Assembly (NCBI GenBank): GCA_963721095.1
Contig: CAVRHU010000004.1
Span: 142,187 to 206,186, forward strand
DNA: 64,000 bases
From: an uncultured Gammaproteobacteria bacterium
Lineage (GTDB): Bacteria > Pseudomonadota > Gammaproteobacteria > Steroidobacterales > Steroidobacteraceae
Direction: 5' to 3'
Of this stretch, positions 7,672 to 63,471 are shown one piece after another. A program made the position numbers and the translations under genes. Every line of letters starts with the position of its first letter. Position 1 is the stretch's first letter. Under the pieces are notes generated by a model. That model saw nothing but the letters and a program-made list of their open reading frames with translations. It was not told where the DNA came from and ran no database searches.

Positions 7672-8982
7672 ATGGAAGGGATGAGTGAGCTGCCCGATGA
7701 TGTGGAGATCTTAAAACAGATCGTCCTCGAGCAGCGCGCCCGGCTCCTCTCCAATAAGCTGCTGATCGAACAACTGAAGCTCGAGCTCTCGAAGCTTCGG
7801 CGCATGTGAGGACGTCTCCGAGGTACTCGAGTACGTGCCGACTCACTTCAAGGTGATCCGCCATGTTCGACCGAAGCTCTCATGCCCAAAGTGCCAGACG
7901 ATCGTGCAAGCAGAGGCGCCTTCGCGACCGATCGCGCGGGGTCTCGCCGGTCCAGGGCTACTCGCCCATGTCCTCGTATCGAAGTATTGCGATCACTTGC
8001 CATTGTACCGGCAGAGTCAGATCTATCAGCGAGATGGGATTGATCTCGATCGCTCAACGCTCGCCGACTGGGTGGGTGCGGCAAGCGCGCTCCTCGATCC
8101 CCTCGTGACCGCGATCAGAGATTACGTCTTCAATGCCCACAAGATCCATGGCGACGATACGCCGGTGCCGGTGCTTTGTCCTGGCCGCGGAACGACGCGA
8201 CAGGGGCGCCTGTGGAGCTACGTGCGCGACGATCGACCAGCGGCCAGCACCGATTCGCCGGCGGTTTGGTTCGCCTACTCCCCGGATCGCAAGGGTGAGC
8301 ACCCGCGCAGGCATTTGCGGGACTTCGTCGGCATCCTGCAGGCCGATGGCTATGCGGGATTTGATCGTCTCTACAACGACCAGGATCCCGATCACCCGAT
8401 CAAAGAGGCAGCCTGTTGGGCGCACTCGCGCAGAAAGTTCTACGATATCCAGGTGGCCACCGACTCGCCCATTGCTAGCGAAGCGCTCACCCGCATCGGT
8501 GAACTCTACGGCATCGAGGCAGAGATCCGCGGCCAATCGCCCGAGATTCGTCGACAGATCCGCAGGGCACGCGCCGGACCGAAGCTCACCGAGCTCCATC
8601 GGTGGCTCATCGCTACGGTGATAAAACTACCGAAGAAGTCAGACCTCGCCGGAGCCATCCATTACGCGCTCGCGCGCTGGAAGGCGCTTACCCGTATTGC
8701 GATGACGGGAGCATCGAGATCGACAACAATGCTGCGGAACGGGCTTTGCGCGCGGTTGCTCTGGGCAGGAAAAACTATCTCTTCGCCGGCGCCGATTGTG
8801 GCGGAGAGCGTGCTGCGGCGATCTATAGCCTGATCGGTACAGCCAAACTGAATGAGCTCGATCCGGAACCCTATCTGAGATACGTGCTCGAGCGCATCGC
8901 AGAACATCCGATTAATCGGATCGAGGCTTTACTCCCATGGAGTGTGGCTCCGATTCTTTGCACCCTGCCATTAGCCGCCTGA
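7672..8982 (+). mobile_element. Decayed IS66-family transposase (TnpC): internal deletion plus frameshift
   Basis: The N-terminus MEGMSELPDDVEILKQ...LKLELSKLRRM* runs directly into ..EDVSEVLEYVPTHFKVIRHVRPKLSCPKC, so the middle is missing. A frameshift near 8694 separates ..ALARWKALTR from YCDDGSIEIDNNAAERALRAVALGRKNYLFAG...LLPWS. Confidence 0.9.
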
Positions 8983-8985
8983 GAT

Positions 8986-9453
8986 ATGCGTCTGCACCCC
9001 GGGTTATTCTCGATCCGCACCCTTTCATGGATTGCCTTTGCGGTGTGCTTAGTCATTTTGCTCAGCATGACCCCGCCCGGCCGATTCGCAGTCGGATTAA
9101 TGCATCCCTGCATCGATTCAACCAAGCAGGTGCTACACGACAGCTCTGGAATCGACTTCACCGTCGTCGAAACCGCGTGCGACACCTTTGGTAACGATGT
9201 ATCTCACAATGTATTCGCTTCAACGAGTGGAAATCCGAGACGCACTCTCCTATTCAAGTACGGCCCCGACGAGCGAAGCCCACTACCGCAGATCGTCGTC
9301 GACGGGAAAACGATTCTAATCTCGATCGATTCGATCGCAGATTTGGTGAAACAGACAGACCGATACGATTCCTACGCAATTCAGTACCACATAAAACATG
9401 TTGAATTTCCCCCAGCTCCCGCCCGCCGCAGATCGGGAGATTCCACTACGTGA
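8986..9453 (+). CDS. Hypothetical membrane-anchored protein in low-GC DNA
   Basis: 155-aa ORF with an N-terminal TM segment (WIAFAVCLVILLS) and balanced downstream composition. GC is visibly lower than the surroundings. It may instead overlap intron domain I if the intron starts at the GTGCG at 9177. Confidence 0.4.
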   Translation: MRLHPGLFSIRTLSWIAFAVCLVILLSMTPPGRFAVGLMHPCIDSTKQVLHDSSGIDFTVVETACDTFGNDVSHNVFASTSGNPRRTLLFKYGPDERSPLPQIVVDGKTILISIDSIADLVKQTDRYDSYAIQYHIKHVEFPPAPARRRSGDSTT

Positions 9454-9799
9454 TATCGAACTACGTCGTCAATGCGGTCATGACCGGACGCTTAGTACGC
9501 CGGGATAAACCGGCGAGAAGGAGAGAATGAAAGAGTCTTACATCGAAGGAGTAGCGATCCACGATGACCCCGAGTCATGCGCGGGCAGCCGTAAGGCTGG
9601 ACGTGAAGTGTTGACAGGGGCACACACAGGTTCGGTATTGAGCCGCGAAATCAGGTTATCTAGGGCGCCGACGCTGTTAAGCGAAGCGGAAGGCAACATA
9701 CGTCAGAGGCGTCATCGCAAGTCTCTGTCTAGCCCTGCGCGGTCGCAGACCCGACACATGTGTGGAACCTTCTTGCGCGAGAACCGGGAGATCCCATAG

Positions 9800-11353
9800 A
9801 TGTCTGCTGCAGATGGTGCATCAGGCCGCTCCGGAAAGGCTAATCGCCGTACCCCGGGGATGCACGTCGATGGGAAGTCGGACGGGTCCGTAGTACCAAC
9901 GAAGCAGCCGAACAAAGCCGAAGGAATGGCCGCGGAGGTTGTGGAGGGAAGGGGCCCGATCAAGGGGAACACGGGCAAGCAAAACGCGTCCCGGACACAG
10001 AGCCGGATCGATGCGCCAAGTGCGCTTGAACGTGTACGCGAAGCTGCAAAGGCAGATAAGAAGAAACGGTTCACGGCGCTGCTGCACCATGTGGACGTAG
10101 ATCGGCTGCGCGAGGCGTACTTTACTTCGAAGAAGCATGCCGCAGCGGGAGTCGACGGCGTTACGTGGCAGCACTATGGCGAGCAACTGGAGGACAACCT
10201 TCGGGCGCTCCATGCCAGAGTGCATCGCGGAGCGTACCGGGCAAAACCCTCGCGGAGAGTGTACATCCCCAAATCAGATGGCCGGCAGCGGCCTTTGGGT
10301 ATCGCAGCTTTGGAGGATAAGATCCTGCAGAGCGCTGTGGTATCGGTGATGAATGCGATCTACGAGAGTGACTTCCTCGGCTTCTCATACGGCTTCCGGC
10401 CAGGACGTGGAGCGCATGATGCACTCGATGCGTTGGCGGTTGGAATTACGGGCAAGAAGGTGAACTGGGTGCTCGATGCGGACATCCGTGGGTTCTTCGA
10501 TACTATCGACCACGGCTGGCTGATCAAGTTTATCGAGCACCGCATTGCGGATCGGAGGGTCCTGCGGCTCATCCAGAAATGGTTGAAAGCGGGGGTCATG
10601 GAACAGGGCAAACGCACGTCAACGGATGTGGGCTCCCCGCAAGGGGCGACGGTATCGCCGTTGCTAGCCAACATCTGTTTGCATTATGCGCTTGATCTGT
10701 GGGTGCAGCAGTGGAGACGGCGGCGTGCGCTCGGTGACATCATCATCGTGCGATACGCTGACGACTTCGTGCTCGGCTTCCAACGTGCCTTCGATGCAAA
10801 GCGGTTCCTTGGGCACCTTCGCGAAAGACTCGCGAAGTTCCGCCTGGAACTGCATCCGGACAAAACCCAGCTTCTTCGGTTCGGGCGGTTTGCCGCCGCT
10901 CAGCGGAAGGAAAAGGGTGAATCCGGTGCACCGCAGACCTTCAACTTCCTCGGGCTGACGCATTGTTGCGGACGCTCGAAAAGTGGGTTGTTCCTGCTGC
11001 TACGTCATACGATACGTTCGCGGTTGACGGCGAAGGTTCATGAGATCACTCACGAACTGCGCCGTCGTCTGCATGAACCGATCGTCTCGCAAGGCAAATG
11101 GCTAGGTGCTGTGCTGCGCGGACATTACGCGTATTACGGCGTGCCGACCAACATCGAGGCGCTCGACGTGTTCCGGTGGGAGGTTACGCATCGCTGGTTC
11201 AAGTCGCTTCGGCGCCGAAGCCAGCGCCGCCGCTTCAACTGGGCGCGAATGGATCGACTCGCGCAACAGTGGCTTCCTCGTGCTCGCATTGTTCATCCTT
11301 GGCCGCAGCAGCGCTTTGCTGTCAGAACCCGAGATAAGAGCCCAGTGCGGTAA
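9800..11353 (+). CDS. Group II intron reverse transcriptase/maturase (no endonuclease domain seen)
   Basis: 517 aa. Motifs seen: KSDGSVVPTKQPNK, RRVYIPKSDGRQRPLGIAALEDKILQ, GSPQGATVSPLLANI, and YADDFV in IIVRYADDFVLGF. A maturase X region (GHYAYYG) is present. No HNH/CxxC endonuclease motif is visible at the C-terminus. The start may be the Met at 9860. Confidence 0.93.
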   Translation: MSAADGASGRSGKANRRTPGMHVDGKSDGSVVPTKQPNKAEGMAAEVVEGRGPIKGNTGKQNASRTQSRIDAPSALERVREAAKADKKKRFTALLHHVDVDRLREAYFTSKKHAAAGVDGVTWQHYGEQLEDNLRALHARVHRGAYRAKPSRRVYIPKSDGRQRPLGIAALEDKILQSAVVSVMNAIYESDFLGFSYGFRPGRGAHDALDALAVGITGKKVNWVLDADIRGFFDTIDHGWLIKFIEHRIADRRVLRLIQKWLKAGVMEQGKRTSTDVGSPQGATVSPLLANICLHYALDLWVQQWRRRRALGDIIIVRYADDFVLGFQRAFDAKRFLGHLRERLAKFRLELHPDKTQLLRFGRFAAAQRKEKGESGAPQTFNFLGLTHCCGRSKSGLFLLLRHTIRSRLTAKVHEITHELRRRLHEPIVSQGKWLGAVLRGHYAYYGVPTNIEALDVFRWEVTHRWFKSLRRRSQRRRFNWARMDRLAQQWLPRARIVHPWPQQRFAVRTRDKSPVR

Positions 11354-12562: not shown

Positions 12563-12973
12563 TTAAGGCGCCCCTTCCATCACCGGGATCTCCCTAAAGT
12601 CATTGTCCCAGCTCGCTCTGTGCGACCCGAAGATGTGCGCATCGGGTTTGAGCGTGACATCGCTATCCAGGCTCCCGGCGGGAACGACCAGCCATCCACC
12701 TTCCAGCTCCACGCTAGGAAGTGCCGACCCGCAAGTCGAGCAAAAGCATTTACTGTGTCGCGTCGATGGCAAGGTGAAGCACGTGATCTTATCCTTCCCA
12801 CTGACCCATCTTAAGTTTGCCCCGGACGCAAACAAGTTGGCGGCGTGTGCAGACCCTGAGTCTTTGCGACAGTGTCCGCAGTGACAAAGATAGAACCGTT
12901 GAAAGTCCCCCTCCACCTCGAAGTGCACAGCCCCACACAGGCAAGAACCGAAATGCATGCGTCGCGAGTCCAC
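12563..12973 (-). CDS. GFA (CENP-V / glutathione-dependent formaldehyde-activating) family protein
   Basis: GSCLCGAVHFEV...YLCHCGHCRKDSG...CSTCGSALP are the Cys clusters of the GFA fold. The GTG start at 12973 lies 7 nt after AAGGAGG. The Met at 12958 is an alternative start. Confidence 0.75.
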   Translation of the reverse strand: MDSRRMHFGSCLCGAVHFEVEGDFQRFYLCHCGHCRKDSGSAHAANLFASGANLRWVSGKDKITCFTLPSTRHSKCFCSTCGSALPSVELEGGWLVVPAGSLDSDVTLKPDAHIFGSHRASWDNDFREIPVMEGAP

Positions 12974-13247
12974 TCTCCATCCTCCTTTTTCCCGCAACCC
13001 GACTTTACCTCTAAATGGGGGCGCAGCGAGTGCCCGCCCAATCAAGTGGGCGCTCCGGTGATTATGGAGCCCGATCCCTGGTGCATGGGTCGCGCAGCGC
13101 GCGACTGACTCCCTCGTTCACAGTATTCTTCAGGCGAGACTGGCAATATCCTCCAGTGTAGGACCTAACCCTAGGTGGCCGTGAAATCCGCGGATTCTCT
13201 CTCACACGCCCCAACTCATTTGGCTAAACTTCTAAGCACAAGTTTGT

Positions 13248-13975
13248 ATGGACACAGAAACCCTTCCTCACGAGCCCTGCGCAAATTGCAGTACTGCAAT
13301 CGTGCCCGGTCAAAATTATTGCGCCAATTGCGGGCAAAAGGCGCCCACGCCGCGCCTGACACTGCATGAAATTGGAGCCGAGTTTGTCCACGCCCTGGCG
13401 CATGTCGATCGCAGCGCGCTGTCGCTGATTTGGCAACTATTAATTCGACCGGGTGTGGTGGCGCGGGATTACGTTGCAGGCAAGCGTAAGCGCTACTTCG
13501 GGCCTTTCGCATTTCTGGTAGTGACCGTCGCGTTTACATCGGCCGTCATTGCCATTTCCGGTTTTCAAGCCGTCACCACCGACGCTCCCAATGGGCTGGC
13601 ATCTTTCTTGCAACAGCATATCAATCTGTTGTTGTTCGTCGAAGTGCCGCTGCTGGCTGCCGCCTGCCGCCTCATAGGAATTCGCGAACCTTTCAACTAT
13701 GCAGAGTACCTCGTGCTTACTTCGTACAGTGCGGGTTTGCATACGCTGTTCTACGCGCTCGTCGTGATCCCGGTATGGTATGTTTTGCGCTCCGACACCG
13801 TACTATTGACGCGACTCTTCTATGTATCCCTGGCGATCGGACCACTGTACCTCGCCTACGGAATGTATCAGTTTCTCCCGGGGCGCCGATTCTCGTCTGC
13901 CATCAAGGGACTGTTCGCGTCACTACTGGCGCAAGCCGCGACGCAGGGCTTAGTGTTCCTCATCGGGTACTCTAT

Positions 13976-13985
<10 letters not shown>
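13248..13985 (+). CDS. DUF3667-like zinc-ribbon membrane protein
   Basis: An N-terminal CANCSTAIVPGQNYCANCG zinc ribbon is followed by LTLHEIGAEFVHAL...RPG..ARDYVAGKRKRYFGPF and several TM segments. Confidence 0.65.
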
Positions 13986-48207: not shown

Positions 48208-48284
48208 GGTGAAGTAGCTCAGTTGGTTAGAGCACGGCATTCATAACGCCGGGGTCGAGGGTTCAACTCCCTCCTTCACCACCA
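48208..48284 (+). tRNA. tRNA-Met (anticodon CAT), elongator type, with encoded CCA
   Basis: Folded by hand. The 7-bp acceptor stem is GGTGAAG/CTTCACC. There is a 4-bp D stem, the anticodon loop TTCATAA, a 5-nt variable loop, a 5-bp T stem with a TTCAACT loop, and a discriminator A followed by CCA. The overall sequence is close to E. coli elongator tRNA-Met. A lysidine-modified tRNA-Ile2 cannot be excluded. Confidence 0.9.
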
Positions 48285-52389: not shown

Positions 52390-53190
52390 TCATCGATGTG
52401 TAACTCTAATGGCCCGCCGGGATCCATCCTGGCTGATCACCTTGAGTCCCGCAACCTGCCCCAGTAGATCGATGATTTCCTCCGCCATGCCGTCCGCCAA
52501 GCATTCCTGAGCCTTCTTTTCACGCGCATCGACGAATGGCAGCACCGCGATCTACTTGCCGGCGATTGGGGCGACCGCCGATGTCTGCGAACCGGCCTGC
52601 TTCGCGGGCCAGTAGCGAATCACGACGCCGACTACCACGGCAGCGGCGAGCAGAAATATCGTGGCGACGATGACGCGCTTAATCGTCAGATAACTGGGTC
52701 GACGTTGACGCTCGGACGGATTACCGCCATCACTGCCCAATCCTGGACTGGTCCAAGACGCGGGTGCCAGGCGTTGTCTCACGGCTTGCGTAAGTTTGGT
52801 CAATGCCGCCGGCATGCCTAAGGCCGCCACATCTATCCACTGCGATTCGCTCAAAAAATACTCAAACGAGCGAGTCAGGGGCGCCGCATCCGTTCGCAGC
52901 ACGATGATTCGCCGTCCTTGTGACGCGGCCCGCTCGGTCTGCCGTCCTACATGCGGCGACGCAAGCGCCTGTTCCGAAAGCACCAGTACAAACACTTTCG
53001 TGCCGCCAATTGCCGCCGCGATCTCATCGTACTGCGATCCTGGCGTGATATCGCGAGGTGCGATCCAGCATTTGATCGCGTGCCGCTCGAGATTCTCAAC
53101 TAAGACGCCTGCGACGGCCGCATCTTGCGAGGCGTAGCTGACGCATACATCGTTGCCCACTGCGGTATCGTTCGGGGTGGTGTCAGTCAT
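52390..53190 (-). pseudogene. TIR-TM-'IAVLPF' module protein: in-frame TAG and loss of the C-terminal (TPR) region
   Basis: MTDTTPNDTAVGNDVCVSYASQDAAVAGVLVENLERHAIKCWIAPRD... is the TIR domain, followed by the TM segment IVATIFLLAAAVVVGVVI. The sequence then reads ..PIAGK*IAVLPFVDAREKKAQECLADGMAEEIIDLLGQVAGLKVIS, with the TAG at 52552-52554. Homology is lost near 52420 and a stop follows at 52390. Confidence 0.7.
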
Positions 53191-53351
53191 TTCGACAAAA
53201 TCAGGATTTTCACGTGCGGCAATCATTGTAGCGGAGCGCCCCGAGCTCTGCCGAAGCCCTGAGTTCGGTCCAAAACGCAACCTATGCGATACTGATGAAT
53301 GGCGCCGATGAGGATTTAATTGCGCGCAAGTTTTTTTGTGAGGTCCACCGT

Positions 53352-54364: not shown

Positions 54365-55537
54365 TTATCGGACGGCGCGGCGAAGCCTGGCGAGATCGGC
54401 ATGCCGCGTGGCGATATCGCCGCGATCGGCAGCCAGCCGCAGATCCCGCAGCGTTTCGAGCGAGCGCAGCAGGACCGGCAGCGGGGGTCCGCTGGCGGTG
54501 ATCCCCTCCAAGCTTTGCTCGCTCAGAGTGGACGCGGGCGCCTCGATGAACCGTTTCACCAAACCATCGTGGTGCTGCGCCGCCGCCTGCCCGAACAGGT
54601 CGCAGACTTCTAGGTAGGCGCGGGCATTCAGCTGAAACCAGCCCGCGTGTTTGTAGTCATCGATCAAAGACAGCAACTCGTCCAGCAGGCTCGTCCGCGT
54701 CATACAGTCGCGTAGCCGCGCTTGATCGGACGGCAGCATGAACAGCATTTTGTCGACCAGAAGCTGTGCGTAATACGGATCGTTGGCGCGGCACAGTCCC
54801 AAAAGCAGGTCGATTTCGTTGATGCCGGAAAAATCCCCGGCATTTGCACCGCGATATTCCTGTCGTCCGACGCGGTAAGGCTTGTAGTAAGGCCGCACCG
54901 AATAAAAAAACCGGTCGACATCCAATTGCCTTATCAATCTGTCGTTGAATCGAATCACATCCCGCAGCGCCTGCTTCGCGGCATCGAACATCACATCCGC
55001 CACGGGACTGGAGACTCCAAGATGTACGATGCTCGCGAGCGCATCCGCCGCGCGCTGCAACGAGAGAATTCCGCGCGTGTTCTCGTCAATGAACAGAAAC
55101 TCGTCCGGCAGTGAGGTAAAGCTCTTGCGAACGCCGGCGCGCGCCCTATTGTGAGTCGCCAGGTGTCCGGTCGAGAATCTCGGCGCCATGCCCAAAGATG
55201 CGCCGACGTGCAGCGCAAGCGAGGAGGCCTCGGGGAACGGCGAGCGCTCCTCTCGCGCCGGATTGGTCAATTCGTGGCGCCGCAACGCGCCGAGATACAG
55301 ACCCACGCTGCCAAGCACTCCGTAGGCGCTGTCGAATCCCTCTCCCGTGTTGCCCTCGGCGAGCAATGCGACAACATGTGTATGACCCTCATCGCGCAAC
55401 GAGGCCTTGATCGGGTCTCCGCAGCCGATCACTTGCGCGCGGTCCTCCTTCGCAAAATATAAGTTTTCGAGTTCGGTATTCATCTGAACAAAGGACGTTC
55501 GAATCCAATGCTCGAATTCTTCTGCCCTGCTGCTCAT
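54365..55537 (-). CDS. PrnB/DUF1864-like protein (IDO/TDO-related heme enzyme family)
   Basis: 390 aa from MSSRAEEFEHW, with GAGGTG 3 nt upstream of the ATG. SFTSLPDEFLFIDE.. and FFYSVRPYYKPYRVGRQEYRGANAGDFSGINEIDLLLG parallel P. fluorescens PrnB ([42 protein letters not shown]), quoted from memory. Confidence 0.6.
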   Translation of the reverse strand: MSSRAEEFEHWIRTSFVQMNTELENLYFAKEDRAQVIGCGDPIKASLRDEGHTHVVALLAEGNTGEGFDSAYGVLGSVGLYLGALRRHELTNPAREERSPFPEASSLALHVGASLGMAPRFSTGHLATHNRARAGVRKSFTSLPDEFLFIDENTRGILSLQRAADALASIVHLGVSSPVADVMFDAAKQALRDVIRFNDRLIRQLDVDRFFYSVRPYYKPYRVGRQEYRGANAGDFSGINEIDLLLGLCRANDPYYAQLLVDKMLFMLPSDQARLRDCMTRTSLLDELLSLIDDYKHAGWFQLNARAYLEVCDLFGQAAAQHHDGLVKRFIEAPASTLSEQSLEGITASGPPLPVLLRSLETLRDLRLAADRGDIATRHADLARLRRAVR

Positions 55538-55569
55538 TCGCACCTCATGCTCACTGCGGGCATCGTACC

Positions 55570-56865
55570 TTATGTCGTGACGGTGCTGCGCGCGCGGGAA
55601 TTCGACAGCGCCGCGCAGATTGCGGCAAGTGCAATTAGATATCCTGTTGCCACGGTCAAGACAATCGGTGGCCCCAGCCCCGCCTTCGCCGCGAATAGGT
55701 GCGCAGCCGCCACCGCCACCGCGGTCGGACCGAGCCCGGCGCCAAGCGCCACGTTTAGAAAGAAACTCATGGACATCGCAAGCCCGCGCGAACGATTCGG
55801 TACCACATCGAGAATCGCGGAAAAACCTACCGCGGTCACGATGCCCGACAAGGCAAAATACAGCGGCACACCGGTCAGGACGAAGTTGAATGCCGGCGAG
55901 TTCATGAGCAGCGAGGCCGGCAATATCAACAGCCCTGAATACAAACATACCCGCAGCTTGCGCGGCCATCCGCCCCGCGCCCCGGCGCGATCCGCGAGGG
56001 CGCCGCCGATGAGCACGCCCCCGCCGAAGCCGACCGTCAAAAGCAAACCCAATTCGACGCCGACCTGCGCCGCATCTTTGCCGAAGTCCCTGATGAGCAG
56101 GGTCGGTGCCCAAGCTCCCACGGCATTGTCGACGAACGAAGCCGCTGCCAATACGATGTAGACCGGCAGGACGCGGGCCCAGGGCGTAGTGCGCCAGGTA
56201 CTGCCGTCTGCTGCGCGGGGGGTGGCCAACTCGCCTTCCACAGTTTGCCGAACCGGCTCGCGAATGAGCAAAATTACCACGGCCCACAAGAGCCCGGGGC
56301 CGCCGATTACGAGCAGTACCATTCGCCACGGCGCGTAGCTGGCCACGGGTGTGGCGGCAAGCGCGCCCAATTCGATGGCGTGCAGAACGCCGCCGCCGAT
56401 CAGAATGGCGACGCCGCTTCCCATCGCAATGCCGCTGAGGAAGAATCCAACCGCCGTACCCCGTCGCGAGGGTGGAAAATAATCGCTGATCAGCGAAATG
56501 GCGGCCGGGGAAAGTGCGGCCTCCCCCAGGCCGACCAGAATGCGGCTCGCAAAAATCTCGAGAAAATTGTGCGAAAAACCGCAGGCGATCGTTCCCACAC
56601 TCCAGACTGATACGCCGCAGAAGATGAGGTTGCGCCGCGAAATACGGTCGGCCAGAAGCCCGAGAGGTATACCGGCGACTCCATAGATCACGGCGAACGC
56701 AGTCCCCAAGAGCAGGCTGATCTGGGTATCGCTGATACCCAGATCGCCGCGAATGGGATCGACCAAAAGACTCAACACTTGCCGATCGGTGTACGACAAG
56801 ACCGCCGTTGCAATCAAAATTGCAACGACGGTCCAAGCGTAGGGACGACTGGGATAGGCGGCCAC
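55570..56865 (-). CDS. MFS transporter
   Basis: 431 aa with a GTG start and 12 predicted TM segments. ..LADRISRRN.. lies in loop 2-3, typical of MFS_1. Confidence 0.85.
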   Translation of the reverse strand: MAAYPSRPYAWTVVAILIATAVLSYTDRQVLSLLVDPIRGDLGISDTQISLLLGTAFAVIYGVAGIPLGLLADRISRRNLIFCGVSVWSVGTIACGFSHNFLEIFASRILVGLGEAALSPAAISLISDYFPPSRRGTAVGFFLSGIAMGSGVAILIGGGVLHAIELGALAATPVASYAPWRMVLLVIGGPGLLWAVVILLIREPVRQTVEGELATPRAADGSTWRTTPWARVLPVYIVLAAASFVDNAVGAWAPTLLIRDFGKDAAQVGVELGLLLTVGFGGGVLIGGALADRAGARGGWPRKLRVCLYSGLLILPASLLMNSPAFNFVLTGVPLYFALSGIVTAVGFSAILDVVPNRSRGLAMSMSFFLNVALGAGLGPTAVAVAAAHLFAAKAGLGPPIVLTVATGYLIALAAICAALSNSRARSTVTT

Positions 56866-56874
56866 GCCGAAGCT

Positions 56875-59193
56875 TCAGAACTTGACGTTCAAATCAACAC
56901 CAATCGTTCTCGGCTGGTTCGTGGCGATCCGGTTCAAAATGGAGATGTTCGCCGACAGAGCGCCGGTATCGCTCAACAGCGCCATCTTGTTGGTCAGATT
57001 GTCCGCGAACAACAGGGCAGACCAGCGACCCGACTCCACACCCAAACGGAAGTTGACCAGATCGTAAGCCGGCAGCGTATTGCGTGCGAAGGTGATGTCT
57101 TGGATCGAACTCACGTAGCTGTTGGTAAGGCGCGCGACGAAGTTCATATCATTCAGCAGGGGCTGCTTGTAATTCACGCTGGTGTTGGCGGTCACTTCCG
57201 GCACGTCCAGCAGGCGCTGTCCCGCCACGACACCGGCGGCCGGCAGAGTGGTCGAGTTCGTGGCGTTGGTATATCCGAAGTTCTGTGTCAGTACGAAATT
57301 CGACACCAGCACGGCGATTTCCAGCTCGGCTCCGTAGACCCGTGCCTTGCCTGCATTGGCGGTGAACTTGAAGCCGCACGCCGGAGCCACTTCCTGCTGC
57401 ACGTTCGTCCAGTCTTCATAATAGACGTCGCCGTTGATCGAGACACGCGAGTTGAGGAATCGCATTTTCTCGCCCAGTTCATAATTCCAGACGCTGTCCG
57501 GACCGAACTGAGTCGGAGCCGCCGATGCACAAGGTGGGACAGGGATCGGCGAGTTCGGGCCGCCCGGACGGAAACCCTTGGACACCGTGCCATAGAGGGT
57601 GGTGTTGTCGTCAGGAATGTAGGCGAGGTCCAGCTTCGGAGTCACGCCTGAATTTTGCGCTAGCCCGAACAATGGGTTGCTGGTGCCGTTGGCGGAGACA
57701 CCGCTGACGCTGGTCACCGAATTGCTGTGATACTGGTAGTAGCGCGCGCCCAGGCTCGCCTTCAAGTTATTCGGCAGCAGGTAGGACACCTCGCCGAATG
57801 CCGCGTACTGGTCGATGTCGACCTTGCGATGGTTGTCGGCTAGATTCGTCGTGCCAAAATCTGCATTAAAGCCATCATTGGTGTCGGGATAAAACGAGAA
57901 CACATGCGAGGTCGCGCCAAAGCTGCTGTAGTAGCCGCCCACCAGCCACTGCAACGGACCGCTGCCGGTCGAGGCAAGCCGCAGCTCCTCGCTGAACTGA
58001 CGCGTGTAGTCGTCCTCGGTGATTGATCCCGCGCCGAGTCCAAAGAATGTAGCGCCGCCTTCCGTCACGGTCGCCGTCGATGAATAGGGAAACGCGGCCG
58101 ACGGACCGAAAAAGCCGCCGATGTAATCCTGCATCGCCTCGGAAATGTCCTGGGTTTGATTCTGCTGACGATCCCAGTAGGCCGAGGCCGACACCAGCTG
58201 GAAGGAATCAAAGCTGTACTTGCCCGTCAATGTGTACAGATCGAACTTATCCGCGAAGGGCTCCGATACGTCGAAAGGCTGATAATGAGTTTCCGTCAGC
58301 GGCGGGTTGTCGATCGTGTTCGGCCCATCCTGGGTGAGCGATTGATGCATGAAGCCGAGCGTGATGCTCAAAGGATCGCTGGGCTGGATCAATAGCGTCG
58401 CGCGCCCGGCTTGCAAGTGTTCCGTGTTCGAATGTTGAAAATCTTGCGTAACGGGCGCGCCGGCAACGTCGCCGCGTGCAGTACTGCCGTTGACTTCGGG
58501 AGGAAACGGACTCACGACTTTCCGGTCGATCCACCCATCGATGTATTTGTCCGTGCCGACCAGGCGCAACGCGACCACATCCTGCATCAACGGGATGTTC
58601 AACATCACGTTCTCGGTGTGATTGAAGCCGCCGCCGTTGGTTGTGTCAGAGCCGATGACCTCGACATTGGCGGCGAAGGCCTTCGGGTCGGGTTGGTTGG
58701 TCACGAGTTTGATCGTGCCGCCCATCGATCCCGCGCCGTACAGCGTGCCCTGCGGTCCGCGAAGCACCTCGACGCGGTTCAAATCGAAGAGGCTCGGATC
58801 GATCACCGTCTTGCCGTTCTGCGCCATGGCAGCGGGCGTGAGTATCGCGTCGTCCAGATAGAAGCCGACCGTCGGGGACTCGCCGCCGGTGGAGGTCAGT
58901 CCCCGCATTTCGTACTCAGTCTGCCCGGGGCCCGATGTCTTGAAGGAGATGCCCGGCACTTGTTGGGCGACCGACGCCATGTCCGACAACCCTTGCGCTT
59001 GGAGATCCGCTCCGCTGATCGCGGTCATGCTGATCGGCGTCTTTTGCACCGTCGAGTCACGCTTTTCCGCGGTGACAACGATTTCTTGCAATTCCTGGCT
59101 GGGCGGCGCGGTCTGCGCCCACACCGTGCCGGTCAATGCCGCGCAACATCCCAAAGCGGCGAGCGCTCGCTTGATGCAGTATTGCTTCCTCAT
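56875..59193 (-). CDS. TonB-dependent receptor
   Basis: The start was chosen at MRKQYCIKRALAALGCCAALTGTVWAQ, right after an A7G8 tract. The plug region is (EIVVTAEKRDSTVQKTPISMTAISGADL...RGL...VGFYLDD). The beta-barrel ends in ..GVDLNVKF, with a terminal Phe. Confidence 0.92.
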   Translation of the reverse strand: MRKQYCIKRALAALGCCAALTGTVWAQTAPPSQELQEIVVTAEKRDSTVQKTPISMTAISGADLQAQGLSDMASVAQQVPGISFKTSGPGQTEYEMRGLTSTGGESPTVGFYLDDAILTPAAMAQNGKTVIDPSLFDLNRVEVLRGPQGTLYGAGSMGGTIKLVTNQPDPKAFAANVEVIGSDTTNGGGFNHTENVMLNIPLMQDVVALRLVGTDKYIDGWIDRKVVSPFPPEVNGSTARGDVAGAPVTQDFQHSNTEHLQAGRATLLIQPSDPLSITLGFMHQSLTQDGPNTIDNPPLTETHYQPFDVSEPFADKFDLYTLTGKYSFDSFQLVSASAYWDRQQNQTQDISEAMQDYIGGFFGPSAAFPYSSTATVTEGGATFFGLGAGSITEDDYTRQFSEELRLASTGSGPLQWLVGGYYSSFGATSHVFSFYPDTNDGFNADFGTTNLADNHRKVDIDQYAAFGEVSYLLPNNLKASLGARYYQYHSNSVTSVSGVSANGTSNPLFGLAQNSGVTPKLDLAYIPDDNTTLYGTVSKGFRPGGPNSPIPVPPCASAAPTQFGPDSVWNYELGEKMRFLNSRVSINGDVYYEDWTNVQQEVAPACGFKFTANAGKARVYGAELEIAVLVSNFVLTQNFGYTNATNSTTLPAAGVVAGQRLLDVPEVTANTSVNYKQPLLNDMNFVARLTNSYVSSIQDITFARNTLPAYDLVNFRLGVESGRWSALLFADNLTNKMALLSDTGALSANISILNRIATNQPRTIGVDLNVKF

Positions 59194-59224
59194 ATCCCCC
59201 CCCTTTTTTTGATCGGTCAATTAC

Positions 59225-59237
59225 GTTTCACTGAAAC
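59225..59237. promoter_or_regulatory. Palindrome GTTTCA-C-TGAAAC between the AKR and TBDR genes
   Basis: A perfect 6-1-6 inverted repeat within the 73-nt spacer. Its function is unknown; it could be an operator or an RNA hairpin. Confidence 0.25.
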
Positions 59238-59266
59238 TGTGGGACCTTCAATTCCCAATGTTCTTA

Positions 59267-60325
59267 TCACTGCTGATCGGCAACGCGCTGCTCCGGCAAC
59301 GCATTCAACTCGTACCTCATGATTCGACCATGCGCGCCCGAGCGATCGCGCTCCAATTCGTATACGTCGCCCGACGGGCCGCGCCGCCGGCCAAGGACGT
59401 TTGCAATCGAAGCCAGTTCGTCGGGATGAAGGCGAAGCCCCCCGATCTGCGCGTGCGCCTGAAGGTGCGACGTATTCACGGCGCCGACAATCGCCGCCGC
59501 AACTTGGTCGCGGTCCAGCATCACCCGTGTCGCCACCGAAGCGATATCGGTACCATGAGCCGCCGCGACGCGTCTCAGCACTTCCAGTAGTTCTTGGAAC
59601 AGTCGCCACCCGCCGAAGTCTTCGATAATCAGCTTGTACTTGGCGAGTGAGCGGTTCGCCAGATCCGCCGCGGGAGCGGGCTTACCCAGCCACCGCTCGG
59701 AAAGAAAGCCGCCGCAAACCGTTCCATAGCACAGCAATGCGATGTCCTGAGCCCGACAATAGGCCACCATGCCGTGATTTGGACGATCATCCAACAATGA
59801 GTATTGAACCTGGTGCGATGTGATCGGTATGCCGGCATCGACGAGTTCCTTCAGCCGCGGCGTGTCGAAATTCGTGACTCCAATGCGGGCGATCTTGCCG
59901 CCGCGGCGCAGCCGGTCGAGTTCGAGGGCCGTCTCGACGTAGCGCGGAATCGCGAAATCCCACCAATGAAATTGCACCAGATCGAGTCGCTCCTGCCCGA
60001 GTCGCGCCAAGGAGCGATCGATAATGGCCTCCACCTGCGCACGATCGACCGAGCGCAAATCGGAGAGGTCAGGAACGAACTTGGTATGAATCTGAACCTG
60101 CTTCGCATGCGCAGGGTAAGAGCGCCGGAAATCGCCGATCAGGCGCTCGACACCGGTGTAGATATCCGCACAATCGAAGGTGGTGATCCCAGCATCGACG
60201 AACGTCGCCATGTCCTGTCGCGCTTGTTTTGGATCGATGTCCCCGTGATCGCCGGCGAGGTGCCAGCCACCTTTGATGATCCGCGAAATCGTGTAATCGC
60301 CCGAAAGGGAAATCCGGGGAATCAC
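59267..60325 (-). CDS. Aldo/keto reductase
   Basis: The GTG start overlaps the upstream stop in GTGA. ..TTFDCADIYTG.. carries the catalytic Asp/Tyr region, ..IHTKF.. the Lys, and ..GVTNF.. is present. Confidence 0.85.
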   Translation of the reverse strand: MIPRISLSGDYTISRIIKGGWHLAGDHGDIDPKQARQDMATFVDAGITTFDCADIYTGVERLIGDFRRSYPAHAKQVQIHTKFVPDLSDLRSVDRAQVEAIIDRSLARLGQERLDLVQFHWWDFAIPRYVETALELDRLRRGGKIARIGVTNFDTPRLKELVDAGIPITSHQVQYSLLDDRPNHGMVAYCRAQDIALLCYGTVCGGFLSERWLGKPAPAADLANRSLAKYKLIIEDFGGWRLFQELLEVLRRVAAAHGTDIASVATRVMLDRDQVAAAIVGAVNTSHLQAHAQIGGLRLHPDELASIANVLGRRRGPSGDVYELERDRSGAHGRIMRYELNALPEQRVADQQ

Positions 60326-60696
60326 TTCGGATTCTCGCGCCCGGAAGAAGTCGCAGTTACCTGCGAGTGTGTAAACTGGCGGCGGCCGGTGCGTGTGATC
60401 CGAAAGCGCGTCGGGCAATTCGGATCGGGGCAGGCGACCTCGGCATCCGTGGACATCCAATCATTCGGATCACTCATGCGCTGTTTGGCGGGCAGTATGG
60501 GCAACAATGCAGCCAATGAATAGATTGAAAATCCCTGGCCTGGCGGAAGCTTCAGCATTTCGCCGTGCAGCTCGAAATAGTCACCCAAGCGGGCACCACA
60601 ATAGATCGTTCGGCCAGGCGGTCCTGTCACTTCGACGCGCAGATCGTAGAGTTCGAACCCTTCAGGGTCTTGCGATTCGTTGGGTGTCACCGTCAC
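60322..60696 (-). CDS. TIGR04076-like small protein
   Basis: YDLRVEVTG..GRTIYCGARLGDYFELHG...FSIYSLAALLPILPAKQR...DWM...VACPDPNCPTRFRITR matches the pattern recalled for TIGR04076 (..C....GD.F...G...C..AL..LLP.L.A.QR...W...CPDP...F.I.R). It has GTGA overlaps at both ends. Confidence 0.6.
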   Translation of the reverse strand: MTVTPNESQDPEGFELYDLRVEVTGPPGRTIYCGARLGDYFELHGEMLKLPPGQGFSIYSLAALLPILPAKQRMSDPNDWMSTDAEVACPDPNCPTRFRITRTGRRQFTHSQVTATSSGRENPK

Positions 60697-61394
60697 GCGA
60701 CTCCATCCCGTCGCTGCCAGAGCGACTCATCACTCATCACCAGATCGAAAGCACGGCCAATGTCGGCTTCTAGCGCCCCGCGCGCCCCAACGGCGTCCCC
60801 GCGCGACAACGCAGCGAGCATCTCGAGGTGAAAGTTCGTTCCGCGCCCCTCCCCGCCGTCAAACCGCTCTGACGCTTCGCGCAGATAGGGCCCAAACTGA
60901 AGCCACAGGCTCTCGATGATCGGCAATAAAACCGTGGACCCAGATTGCCGATAGATCGCGAAGTGAAAGGCGCGGTTCTGTTCCGCGCTCTCCTCGGAGA
61001 CATGCTCCTCATCCGTTTCGCTTTGAGCGACGATCAGCCGCTGAAGCGTCGCCAGCGATTCATCGGTCATGTTCGACGCCGCACGCGATATCGCCAGTCC
61101 CTCGATCGCAAACCTCGTTTCCCGCAGGTCCTGCAACGCGCTTTTTGACAGAGCCGGTACACGCACGGTCCGGCTGGGCAAGGTTTCCAGCGCTCTCTCC
61201 ACAGTCAGACGGTTCAGGGCATCGCGAACCGGCATGGCGCTGGTGCCAAACGCTGCCGCGAGTTCGGCAATTTTCAGTTTCTGCCCCGGTTCGAAGCCGC
61301 CGCGCATCAGTTGGTCCCGCAGCGCGCAATAGACGCGCTCCTGGACGGTCTCACGGGCAATGCGCGCTAACCCAAGACTGGCTCGAACGGACAT
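60693..61394 (-). CDS. GntR (FadR subfamily-like) transcriptional regulator
   Basis: 233 aa. The winged HTH is ..PGQKLKIAELAAAFGTSAMPVRDALNRL. The C-terminus is an all-helical FCD-like domain (..FHFAIY...). Confidence 0.9.
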   Translation of the reverse strand: MSVRASLGLARIARETVQERVYCALRDQLMRGGFEPGQKLKIAELAAAFGTSAMPVRDALNRLTVERALETLPSRTVRVPALSKSALQDLRETRFAIEGLAISRAASNMTDESLATLQRLIVAQSETDEEHVSEESAEQNRAFHFAIYRQSGSTVLLPIIESLWLQFGPYLREASERFDGGEGRGTNFHLEMLAALSRGDAVGARGALEADIGRAFDLVMSDESLWQRRDGVA

Positions 61395-61408
61395 CGGTAC
61401 ATCCTGTG

Positions 61409-61424
61409 ATTTGTGATCACAAAT
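61409..61424. promoter_or_regulatory. Perfect 16-bp palindrome ATTTGTGATCACAAAT, candidate GntR operator
   Basis: It lies 15 nt upstream of the gntR ATG. The core TTGT-GATC-ACAA fits the GT-N-AC type operators of GntR/FadR regulators. Confidence 0.6.
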
Positions 61425-61752
61425 TTATAATCAAAGATATTTGGTAATGCAAGTGCTGATTGTCGGGTTTGGCGCCTCCGGGGCAATGGTCGGTGACATC
61501 CACTTCAACGGCGTGCGATGCCTCAGATCCTGCGACGCTGCGAAAACGGGGGCGCACGATCACCTCATGTAATATCTATTAAACAATTGTATATTGTTGA
61601 TTAACAGACGATATTTTTTCTGTGCCGGAACTTCCACGGGCACGCAGAACATAATCGGCAGTACCCCACTCGATCGGCTTTGGCAAAGCCATGCGTGTGC
61701 ACGAAACTCTTCGACGCGAGCACCTCCGGAATCTTCATCCTTCAGCGAACAC

Positions 61753-62094: not shown

Positions 62095-62865
62095 TCACAA
62101 TTGGTAGCCCTTTGAACCCACCGCGATGGCCAGGGGGCTGCGAGACTCGCTCGATTGTTTCAATCCTTCGAGGATACTGTGGAAGTCGTATAGCGGCTTC
62201 CACCCCAGCTCGGATCTGGCCTGCTCGTTCACATAGACTCGATCAATCGAAGATGCGCATGGGCCACGTCGGCTATATCAGCGCGCCGATACAAGAATTC
62301 GTTCACCTTCAAGTTGGTGCTGTCGTAACTTAGCCGCGCCGTTTCGTCGTCGTCCTGTTCCGGGAAAAACCGGCCCGTTCGCAACACGATGCTCGGCAGA
62401 CCCCGGTCCCGCGCGAATAGCTCGCATAAGTTCTCGGCGACAAGCTTCGTAATTCCGTAAATATTCTTAGGCATGGCACCGTCTGCTCGGTGATCCATGC
62501 GGCCGGCTCTCCTGCCGGCGGCGAAAGCGCGTGCCCATAGACACTGGTGGTACTCGTAAGAACAAACGAACCAACGCCCGCTGCCGCAGCTTCCTCGAGT
62601 AGATTCAGCGTGCCGGTGACATTGACATCAAGGCTTGCCGGACGTGGCTTGCAATATGGGGCTTGTGGAGCGTCGCGCAATTCAAAACCACATCCGCGCC
62701 CACAAGGCAGTCTTTCACAAAACTGCGATCCGTAATTGAGCCCCGTCGATGCGTGTATGCCGAACTCTTGATATCCAGTCCCATGGCCTCATGCTCGGAA
62801 GTCTGCAGCGTTCGCATGAGCGCTTCGCCCAGGTGTCCGGCACTGCCCGTGACCAGGATTCTCAT
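62095..62865 (-). pseudogene. NAD-dependent epimerase/dehydratase (SDR), multiply frameshifted
   Basis: MRILVTGSAGHLGEAL carries the GxxGxxG motif. The gene continues as ..VNVTGTLNLLEEAAAAGVGSFVLTSTTSVYG.., then ..PKNIYGITKLVAENL.. with the YxxxK motif, then ..LGWKPLYDF... in four different frames. Confidence 0.75.
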
Positions 62866-62931: not shown

Positions 62932-63471
62932 TTAACGGACGGGCTCCGAGACGCTTCCGGGCCTTTCGCCAACGCGTGCGCCAACGCCTGAACCTCGCGA
63001 AATGCTGCTCGCAATTACACAACTGATGACGTCCAGCGAAAAGCGGTATCCATCGGCCCAACCGCTCGCGCGAGGTCCCGAAACGTTCAACACCTCAATT
63101 TGATGATCTTCGATGAACTTCAGAATCGCGGCTGCAGCCTCGGCCGGATCGGTTGTCTCTTGCGCCCGAACCAAAATGTAAGGCTTCTTCTCCAAAGCAC
63201 ACAGATTCCGTGTAAGCCGGCTGCCACCTTTCAAGATCTCACTGAACAGGATCGCCGTGCCATTACTGTCCGCGACATTGAGACGCGTCCGTTGCCGATA
63301 GCCGCCTTTTGGCAAAGGTGTCAGCGGATACCGATCGGCGATGACTCCATCCTCAGCCAGTCGGTCCCACGTCACCCAACCACCGCAGGAGAAATGCGCC
63401 GCGAGCGCCGCGTCGAGCGCTGCGCGGTCTACGCCGGTCTGGCCGCCGGAGACTATTTTTTTGAGTGGCAT
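62932..63471 (-). CDS. YpsA/'putative molybdenum carrier' (SLOG superfamily) protein
   Basis: MPLKKIVSGGQTGVDRAALDAALAAHFSCGGW.....DG.I..RYPL is the family N-terminal signature. Confidence 0.7.
   Translation of the reverse strand: MPLKKIVSGGQTGVDRAALDAALAAHFSCGGWVTWDRLAEDGVIADRYPLTPLPKGGYRQRTRLNVADSNGTAILFSEILKGGSRLTRNLCALEKKPYILVRAQETTDPAEAAAAILKFIEDHQIEVLNVSGPRASGWADGYRFSLDVISCVIASSISRGSGVGARVGERPGSVSEPVR

Follow-up and report, generated by a model that had tools for sequence, protein, structure and literature searches.

Why should the gene of a heme protein from the PrnB/DUF1864 family, named after a ring-rearranging enzyme of pyrrolnitrin biosynthesis, close an operon for uptake across the outer and inner membranes? 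The question was raised by a stretch of 64,000 nucleotides (nt) from an uncultured soil bacterium of the Gammaproteobacteria, family Steroidobacteraceae (assembly GCA_963721095.1, contig CAVRHU010000004.1, positions 142,187-206,186 of the forward strand). The whole stretch is called the window below, and coordinates are counted from its first letter. Six tightly packed genes on its minus strand encode, from 5' to 3', a GntR-family regulator, a small TIGR04076-family protein, an aldo/keto reductase (AKR), a TonB-dependent outer-membrane receptor (TBDR), a permease of the major facilitator superfamily (MFS) and the heme protein. Our comparisons identified the last of these as an orthologue of Shewanella oneidensis SO4414, and the first five as a conserved cassette that the heme gene joins only in some loci. 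We regard it as an evenly balanced call that the locus is a GntR-repressed operon for uptake and reduction with an appended heme oxygenase, which would probably open an indole-type ring.

The heme protein and the operon that it closes

The last gene (54365-55537, minus strand) encodes 390 amino acids (aa), of which residues 4-388 were aligned with positions 3-386/387 of the Pfam profile PF08933 at 535 bits against a cut-off of 27. This full-length match above the gathering score established the PrnB/DUF1864 membership that a first-pass annotation, made by a model from the bare letters, had proposed. The same check with the hidden Markov models of the indoleamine 2,3-dioxygenase (IDO) and tryptophan 2,3-dioxygenase (TDO) families came out negative: no Pfam IDO or Trp_dioxygenase match was obtained, PF08933 alone being reported at E up to 0.01. 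In phmmer searches against the PDB, the protein matched SO4414 (1ZEE and 2NWB) over residues 5-390 with E 1.7e-139, compared with E 7e-14 over residues 64-293 only for Pseudomonas fluorescens PrnB and 2.7e-07 for the PrnB of Flavobacteriales. The AlphaFold2 (AF2) model (predicted local distance difference test score, pLDDT, 91.7) was superposed on 2NWB with template modelling (TM) scores of 0.94/0.97, a root-mean-square deviation of 1.0 Å and 53% identity in the structural alignment. Against PrnB, the TM scores were 0.65-0.77 at 15-20% identity (~19%), and against human IDO1 ~0.65, so that the likeness to IDO and TDO lies at the level of the fold only. What stood of the proposed likeness to PrnB was therefore the family and the shared fold, with TM ~0.7; a specific resemblance was not found, and the protein is far closer to 2NWB. 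These results indicated that the 390-aa protein is an SO4414 orthologue with a predicted heme-binding IDO/TDO/PrnB fold.

SO4414 was solved as the apo form (1ZEE) and with ferric heme (2NWB), the latter under the title "putative 2,3-dioxygenase in complex with ferric heme". The window protein is an orthologue of it along the full length and has the same invariant residues, among them the histidine of the QHH motif. In an alignment of 12 sequences with 27-76% identity, H322 (in QHH), R87-H88, P119-R120 and R229-G230...G234-D235 were invariant and H323 was nearly so, a pattern that would fit a conserved heme and substrate site. With PrnB, the monodechloroaminopyrrolnitrin synthase (2V7I, 9DFG), it has in common PF08933, the helical heme fold and the core motif RP(Y/F)Y.P.RVG...Y.G; the context in the window, unlike that of PrnB, is catabolic and not biosynthetic.

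The family is small, with 379 representative clusters at 50% identity. The SO4414 type is widespread in marine Gammaproteobacteria and soil Steroidobacteraceae, and the close relatives of the window protein (85-94% identity) come from metagenome-assembled genomes of Steroidobacteraceae. Relatives are named "PrnB family protein" by NCBI; some depositors entered them as "tryptophan 2,3-dioxygenase KynA" or "indoleamine 2,3-dioxygenase", labels that were apparently made by inference. Forouhar et al., in PNAS in 2007, are said to have named SO4414 sIDO, without a clear activity. What the literature searched yielded on the SO4414 branch and TIGR04076 was limited to a note on fold prediction from 2008, a benchmark of heme residues and one mention in an unrelated context, and the SO4414 clade was not discussed in the 2024 paper on PrnB.

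The remaining five genes, all on the minus strand, were confirmed in order, family and packing as the first-pass annotation had given them, with coordinates, Pfam and NCBIfam matches, overlaps and spacers of 9-73 nt. The first gene (60693-61394) encodes a 233-aa GntR-family regulator with an FCD domain (PF00392 E 3.3e-17, PF07729 E 1e-19). Its nearest solved relative is Escherichia coli McbR/YncC (4P9F, E 2.2e-27), and its likeness to FadR/FCD-type GntR repressors consists in the winged-helix plus FCD architecture. The second gene (60322-60696) encodes the 124-aa TIGR04076-family protein (59.5 bits in NCBIfam, cut-off 33), and the third (59267-60325) the 352-aa AKR (Aldo_ket_red PF00248, E 1.9e-64). 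GTGA overlaps were read at the GntR/TIGR04076 and TIGR04076/AKR junctions, the GTG start of the AKR gene overlapping the TIGR04076 stop; the small protein is thus translationally coupled to both of its neighbours. The TBDR (56875-59220) contains the plug (PF07715, E 2.3e-19) and the barrel (PF00593, E 1.9e-35), without the STN signalling extension in Pfam, and its translation shows a signal peptide and a TonB-box-like EIVVTA. It is separated from the AKR gene by 46 nt to a TTG start or by 73 nt to the next ATG (alternative start at 59193). The MFS permease (55570-56865; MFS_1 E 7.7e-45), presumed to be the inner-membrane importer, follows after 9 nt, and an MFS gene was found directly 3' of the TBDR gene in 30+ related loci. 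Its nearest subfamily was that of the anion:cation symporters (D-galactonate transporter), with TIGR00893 at E 3.6e-40, below the cut-off of that model. The heme gene begins 32 nt further on the same strand, and no terminator-like site was found when this gap was searched.

For the two proteins that would act on the imported compound, the comparisons were less informative. The TIGR04076 protein has three invariant cysteines, C33, C89 and C94. Foldseek gave no PDB match at E <1 for its AF2 model, which is of low confidence (pLDDT 65.6), and the sequence search of the PDB gave nothing below E 0.36. In the AKR, the motifs DCADIY (from residue 51), HTKF (80) and QFHWW (118) were recognised and the Asp-Tyr-Lys-His tetrad was assigned by motif pattern. 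Its PDB relatives are distant (best MtmW with 87 bits, YhdN also at ≤87 bits), too distant to suggest a substrate.

A predicted operator over the start of the GntR transcript

A promoter-like block of the sigma-70 type was located at 61424-61452 on the minus strand, with a -35 hexamer TTGCAT (61452-61447), a 17-nt spacer and a -10 hexamer TATAAA (61429-61424). The perfect 16-bp palindrome ATTTGTGATCACAAAT at 61409-61424 begins at the last base of the -10 hexamer and covers the expected transcription start. It had been noticed in the first reading as lying 15 nt upstream of the ATG of the GntR gene; the palindrome was confirmed, and the distance is 14 nt. In GntR-family operators, a palindrome of the T.GT...AC.A type over the -10/start region is expected for autorepression.

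As perfect 16-bp palindromes numbered 4 in the window and ~1.1 were expected from shuffles, significance by count alone was ruled out (4 against ~1), and the site was judged to be real, as a predicted operator, because of its position and its conservation. Across 60 loci with GntR identities down to 69%, the 90 nt 5' of the GntR gene kept the form CTTGCA-N17-TATAAA followed by the dyad. The TGATCA core was invariant, and at least 7 of the 8 dyad pairs were kept in 41 of the 60 loci. At one locus (L146), the site reads ATCTTTGATCAAAGAT, again a perfect palindrome, with both half-sites changed. When 2.19 Mb of related loci were scanned for TTGTGATCACAA with at most one mismatch, 35 of the 38 matches fell within 80 nt upstream of a GntR gene; in the same scan, no second copy was found upstream of the heme gene in the cassette loci. 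The conserved dyad, the paired changes and the position of the matches support the palindrome as a predicted operator, and the layout is one that autorepression of a GntR/FCD operon would lead one to expect.

The promoter was recognised from its conservation. A consensus promoter scan of the window did not flag it, because the -35 hexamer matches at 3 of 6 positions only in this sequence. In addition, an Rfam search of 53-63 kb at E up to 0.1 revealed no riboswitch or leader RNA. Within the promoter spacer, a second dyad-like element was observed at 61430-61445, as ACCAAATATCTTTGAT in the window and as ATCAAATATCTTTGAT or ATCACAGATCTTTGAT at many of the related loci; this element may represent another pair of operator half-sites.

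Facultative linkage of the heme gene and its partners elsewhere

The neighbourhood of the heme gene was compared in 80 orthologue loci from 80 genomes (73-93% identity), of which 68 were informative and 12 were too short to judge. The TIGR04076-AKR pair was present near the heme gene in 19 of the 68 informative Steroidobacteraceae loci (~28%), and three gene orders were distinguished. In the first, the heme gene follows the MFS gene as in the window (9 genome loci, 2 more on cut contigs, and 16 metagenome loci). In the second, it precedes GntR-TIGR04076-AKR-TBDR-MFS (L066, L071 and L118; 2 genome loci and 1 metagenome locus). The third, found at 6 loci, runs LysR-TIGR04076-AKR-amidohydrolase-heme gene, with DUF885 and TBDR genes upstream. 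Its AKR is 64-68% identical to that of the window and its heme protein 83-91%, and on account of this difference we regard the third order as an independent association, which suggests a second, paralogous TIGR04076-AKR pair.

The reciprocal comparison started from the AKR as the query in metagenome contigs, where 31 cassettes had enough flanking sequence (at least 1.4 kb for a call of absence). TIGR04076 adjoined the AKR gene in 71 of the 75 related loci with room for it, and the five-gene cassette GntR-TIGR04076-AKR-TBDR-MFS persisted down to ~70% AKR identity. The heme gene was carried by 17 of the 31 cassettes, after the MFS gene in 16 and before the GntR gene in 1. At two outlying loci (L133 and L135), the linkage was kept at 73% AKR identity and 60% heme-protein identity, and in a neighbour-joining tree the linked heme genes were spread from the root over deep branches to the crown clade. 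Based on the three gene orders, the apparently paralogous pair, the outlying loci and the spread over the tree, the association is beyond chance. It is also facultative: the cassette persists with and without the heme gene, and is thus the conserved unit.

The core of the cassette is not confined to the Steroidobacteraceae. TIGR04076 homologues with 60-77% identity were found on chromids and plasmids of Phyllobacterium, Thioclava, Microvirga, Rhizobium and others. The modules there, among them those of the first three genera (L168, L169 and L170, respectively), have the same GntR-TIGR04076-AKR order and the same overlapping GntR/TIGR04076 junction. Where the window has the TBDR and MFS genes, these modules have a divergent LIV-type ABC transporter with its substrate-binding protein, as well as another, unusually long AKR of ~490 aa. 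Because the same core is joined to LIV-type ABC transporters in Alphaproteobacteria, the Steroidobacteraceae cassette, judged by its gene content, is a transporter-swapped form of a widespread GntR-TIGR04076-AKR module.

The surroundings of the heme gene are extremely variable, the commonest neighbour cluster being present in 15 of the 80 loci. Peptidases, amidohydrolases, an amino-acid permease and hydroxyproline-catabolic genes recur there as well. A cluster of MarR, short-chain dehydrogenase/reductase (SDR), enoyl-CoA hydratase, acyl-CoA dehydrogenase, RidA and old yellow enzyme (OYE) flavin reductase genes was also seen to recur beside the heme gene in several Steroidobacteraceae (L035, L038, L042, L045, L071, L011, L022 and L050), and resembles a CoA-dependent degradation pathway for an aromatic compound or an amino acid.

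A different partner was revealed across the SO4414-type family, namely a class-V pyridoxal phosphate (PLP) enzyme (Aminotran_5/KYNU_C). Its gene was present in 22 of the 80 Steroidobacteraceae heme-gene loci and adjacent in 13. It also adjoins the heme gene in more distant relatives (L083 with 55% identity, L164 and L165 with 52%, L166 with 47%). In Shewanella acanthi and Pseudoalteromonas phenolica, the heme gene is followed by it after 2-4 nt, and P. phenolica has a divergent AsnC/Lrp regulator there as well; the window gene instead ends a TBDR/MFS/AKR operon. On a Novosphingobium megaplasmid, the only plasmid with a PrnB-family gene in the plasmid collection searched, the PLP gene was found by hand annotation near the heme gene; an M20 peptidase, a TBDR and two amidohydrolases are encoded there too. 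Moreover, a 767-aa protein (P0123, positions 313-2616 of L082) fuses an SO4414-type heme domain to a kynureninase-like class-V PLP domain and would act as a Rosetta-stone link between the two families; it lies on a single 2.8-kb metagenome contig and may be an assembly or frameshift artefact. The PLP proteins matched TIGR01814 (kynureninase) over nearly the full length with 65-99 bits against an equivalog cut-off of 246, and are therefore called kynureninase-like and not kynureninase. The deepest and widest partner of the SO4414-type heme family is the kynureninase-like PLP enzyme and not the uptake genes. The pairing mirrors kynA-kynU of the bacterial kynurenine pathway (kynA-kynB-kynU), from which it differs in that the PLP partner stays below the kynureninase cut-off and no formamidase partner was seen.

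Several further features were recorded in the window. At slightly over 1 kb from the heme gene's end, past a convergent PD40-repeat gene, a TIR_2-domain protein is encoded at 52552-53280 (minus strand), and upstream of the operon lies the gene of a circularly permuted YpsA (SLOG) protein (62932-63471, minus strand). Domains of these two types are found in systems of defence or signalling. An NAD-dependent epimerase/dehydratase gene (62229-62865, minus strand) is split over three overlapping frames, either as a pseudogene or through frameshift errors of the assembly. At a distance from the operon, an open reading frame for an IS66-family transposase (7835-8833) is followed by a group II intron, with RF02005 (domains D1-D4) at 9532-9752 on the plus strand (182.6 bits) and a reverse-transcriptase frame at 9800-11353. 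The perfect 16-bp palindromes at 8906 and 11206 fall in this stretch (7835-11353). Another, ATTGCAGTACTGCAAT at 13285-13300, is placed between the divergent genes of a GFA-family protein (12563-13045, minus strand) and a DUF3667 protein (13248-13985, plus strand), and may be a regulatory site. Besides RF02005, the only Rfam match in the window was a tRNA gene at 48208-48281 on the plus strand (RF00005, 68.7 bits).

Proposed working of the locus and its alternatives

In the reading that we prefer, the locus would be a catabolic uptake operon repressed by its own GntR/FCD regulator. The TBDR would bring an organic anion across the outer membrane and the MFS permease would bring it across the inner one, and the imported compound, or a product of it, would release the repressor. 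The TIGR04076 protein and the AKR would carry out an NAD(P)H-dependent carbonyl reduction on the imported compound. The heme gene would have been added at the 3' end in the lineage of the window and would be transcribed by read-through from the GntR promoter. Its product would oxygenate, and probably open, an indole-type ring as IDO and TDO do, without a rearrangement of the PrnB type, and here it would act either on the imported compound or on tryptophan that enters the pathway of that compound. The first-pass annotation's suggestion, import of a tryptophan- or indole-like compound and its heme-dependent transformation, is thus still plausible. Since the substrate of kynureninase is an aryl-ketone amino acid, the kynureninase-like partner argues for ring opening of the IDO/TDO kind, with an aryl-ketone amino acid as the product, over a PrnB-type rearrangement. 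It may be speculated that the AKR acts on a carbonyl of the same kind as the kynureninase-like enzyme does; such a shared target would account for the switching of the heme gene from one of these partners to the other.

A more specific and bolder version can be formulated. SO4414-type proteins might be a class of heme oxygenases in their own right, which together with the kynureninase-like enzyme might convert tryptophan, or a compound like it, in two steps and by a non-canonical route to an anthranilate-type product. In the Steroidobacteraceae, the oxygenase might have been rewired to TonB-dependent uptake and the TIGR04076-AKR pair, with the carbonyl formed on ring opening being reduced and not hydrolysed. 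We put this forward tentatively and consider it rather unlikely to hold as stated.

The following observations weigh against a functional unit of six genes. The linkage that the first-pass annotation had led us to look for in orthologues was kept in part: beside the 19 loci in three arrangements, the TIGR04076-AKR pair was absent nearby in 49 of the 68 informative loci (72%). In the reciprocal direction, 14 of the 31 cassettes lacked the heme gene, the unit ending at the MFS gene or being followed by a rhomboid, SDR, amidohydrolase or other gene. The MFS-heme gene spacer varies in relatives from 13 to 638 nt, far more loosely than the other junctions, so that the sixth gene appears to be less firmly attached, and a heme gene placed before the GntR gene lies outside the operator-controlled unit. 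No PrnB-family gene was found in the alphaproteobacterial modules examined. A kynureninase-like gene was found nowhere in the 64-kb window, and no formamidase partner was evident. In addition, the roles proposed for the TIGR04076 protein and the AKR were inferred from family membership alone, and in the literature searched no activity was assigned to SO4414-type proteins, nor to TIGR04076.

The two gene sets might instead be neighbours without a shared function, which is a real possibility although on the doubtful side. The cassette would then be self-contained, and the heme gene an independent tryptophan-catabolic gene in a rearrangement-prone region. Its product would pair with a kynureninase-like enzyme whose gene lies in another part of the genome, and co-transcription with the cassette would be incidental read-through. 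The variable surroundings of the heme gene, the loci and cassettes in which one set occurs without the other, the alphaproteobacterial modules that never carry the heme gene, the family-wide PLP partner and the recurrent peptidases, amidohydrolases, amino-acid permease and hydroxyproline-catabolic genes all speak for such a neighbour. Against it, three gene orders bring the two sets side by side, one order including a divergent and apparently paralogous TIGR04076-AKR pair, and the linkage extends to deep-branching lineages. A chance adjacency of two specific units among several thousand genes should not recur in this way. In the window itself, the gap of 32 nt on one strand without a terminator also argues against mere proximity.

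A role of the TIGR04076-AKR pair as redox partner, in which the Cys-rich small protein and the NAD(P)H-dependent AKR keep the SO4414-type heme ferrous, is very improbable. IDO and TDO need reductive activation, the pair is the element most often kept beside the heme gene as the transporters vary, and the three invariant cysteines and the translational coupling to the AKR would suit such a partner. However, the pair is widespread without a PrnB-family gene and so must have a function of its own, and the low-confidence model of the TIGR04076 protein matched no known fold. AKRs transfer hydride to carbonyls, and to our knowledge they are not electron-transfer partners.

That the protein is a true PrnB, the ring-rearranging enzyme of a pyrrolnitrin-like biosynthesis, has next to no probability in spite of the family name, the NCBI label of its relatives and the shared fold, and this identity is effectively refuted by the low similarity (~19% identity and a partial match, against the full-length match to SO4414) and by the absent pyrrolnitrin partners, since, as the first reading had stated for the window, no prnA or prnC halogenase and no prnD oxygenase was found among the operon genes, in the flanks (51-64 kb scanned gene by gene) or in the contexts of the relatives, every one of which looks catabolic.

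What is new here is that a known type of repressor-controlled uptake operon has acquired a known heme protein; the kind of system is itself not new. A heme-bound crystal structure of the SO4414 branch has been available since 2006, and the gene contexts described here provide two testable handles on the chemistry of SO4414-type proteins: the kynureninase-like partner, and the TonB-dependent uptake operon with its TIGR04076-AKR pair. If these links are functional, the search for a substrate would be narrowed to tryptophan-like or aryl-ketone compounds and a role for TIGR04076 would be indicated. Even otherwise, "PrnB family protein" is a misleading name for the SO4414 clade, from which no pyrrolnitrin-like chemistry should be inferred. 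Should the route with a rewired oxygenase prove true, it would add a new way of catabolising an exogenous indolic compound and would give TIGR04076 its first function. The value of the locus lies in the lead that it offers toward the function of two orphan families, the SO4414 branch and TIGR04076.

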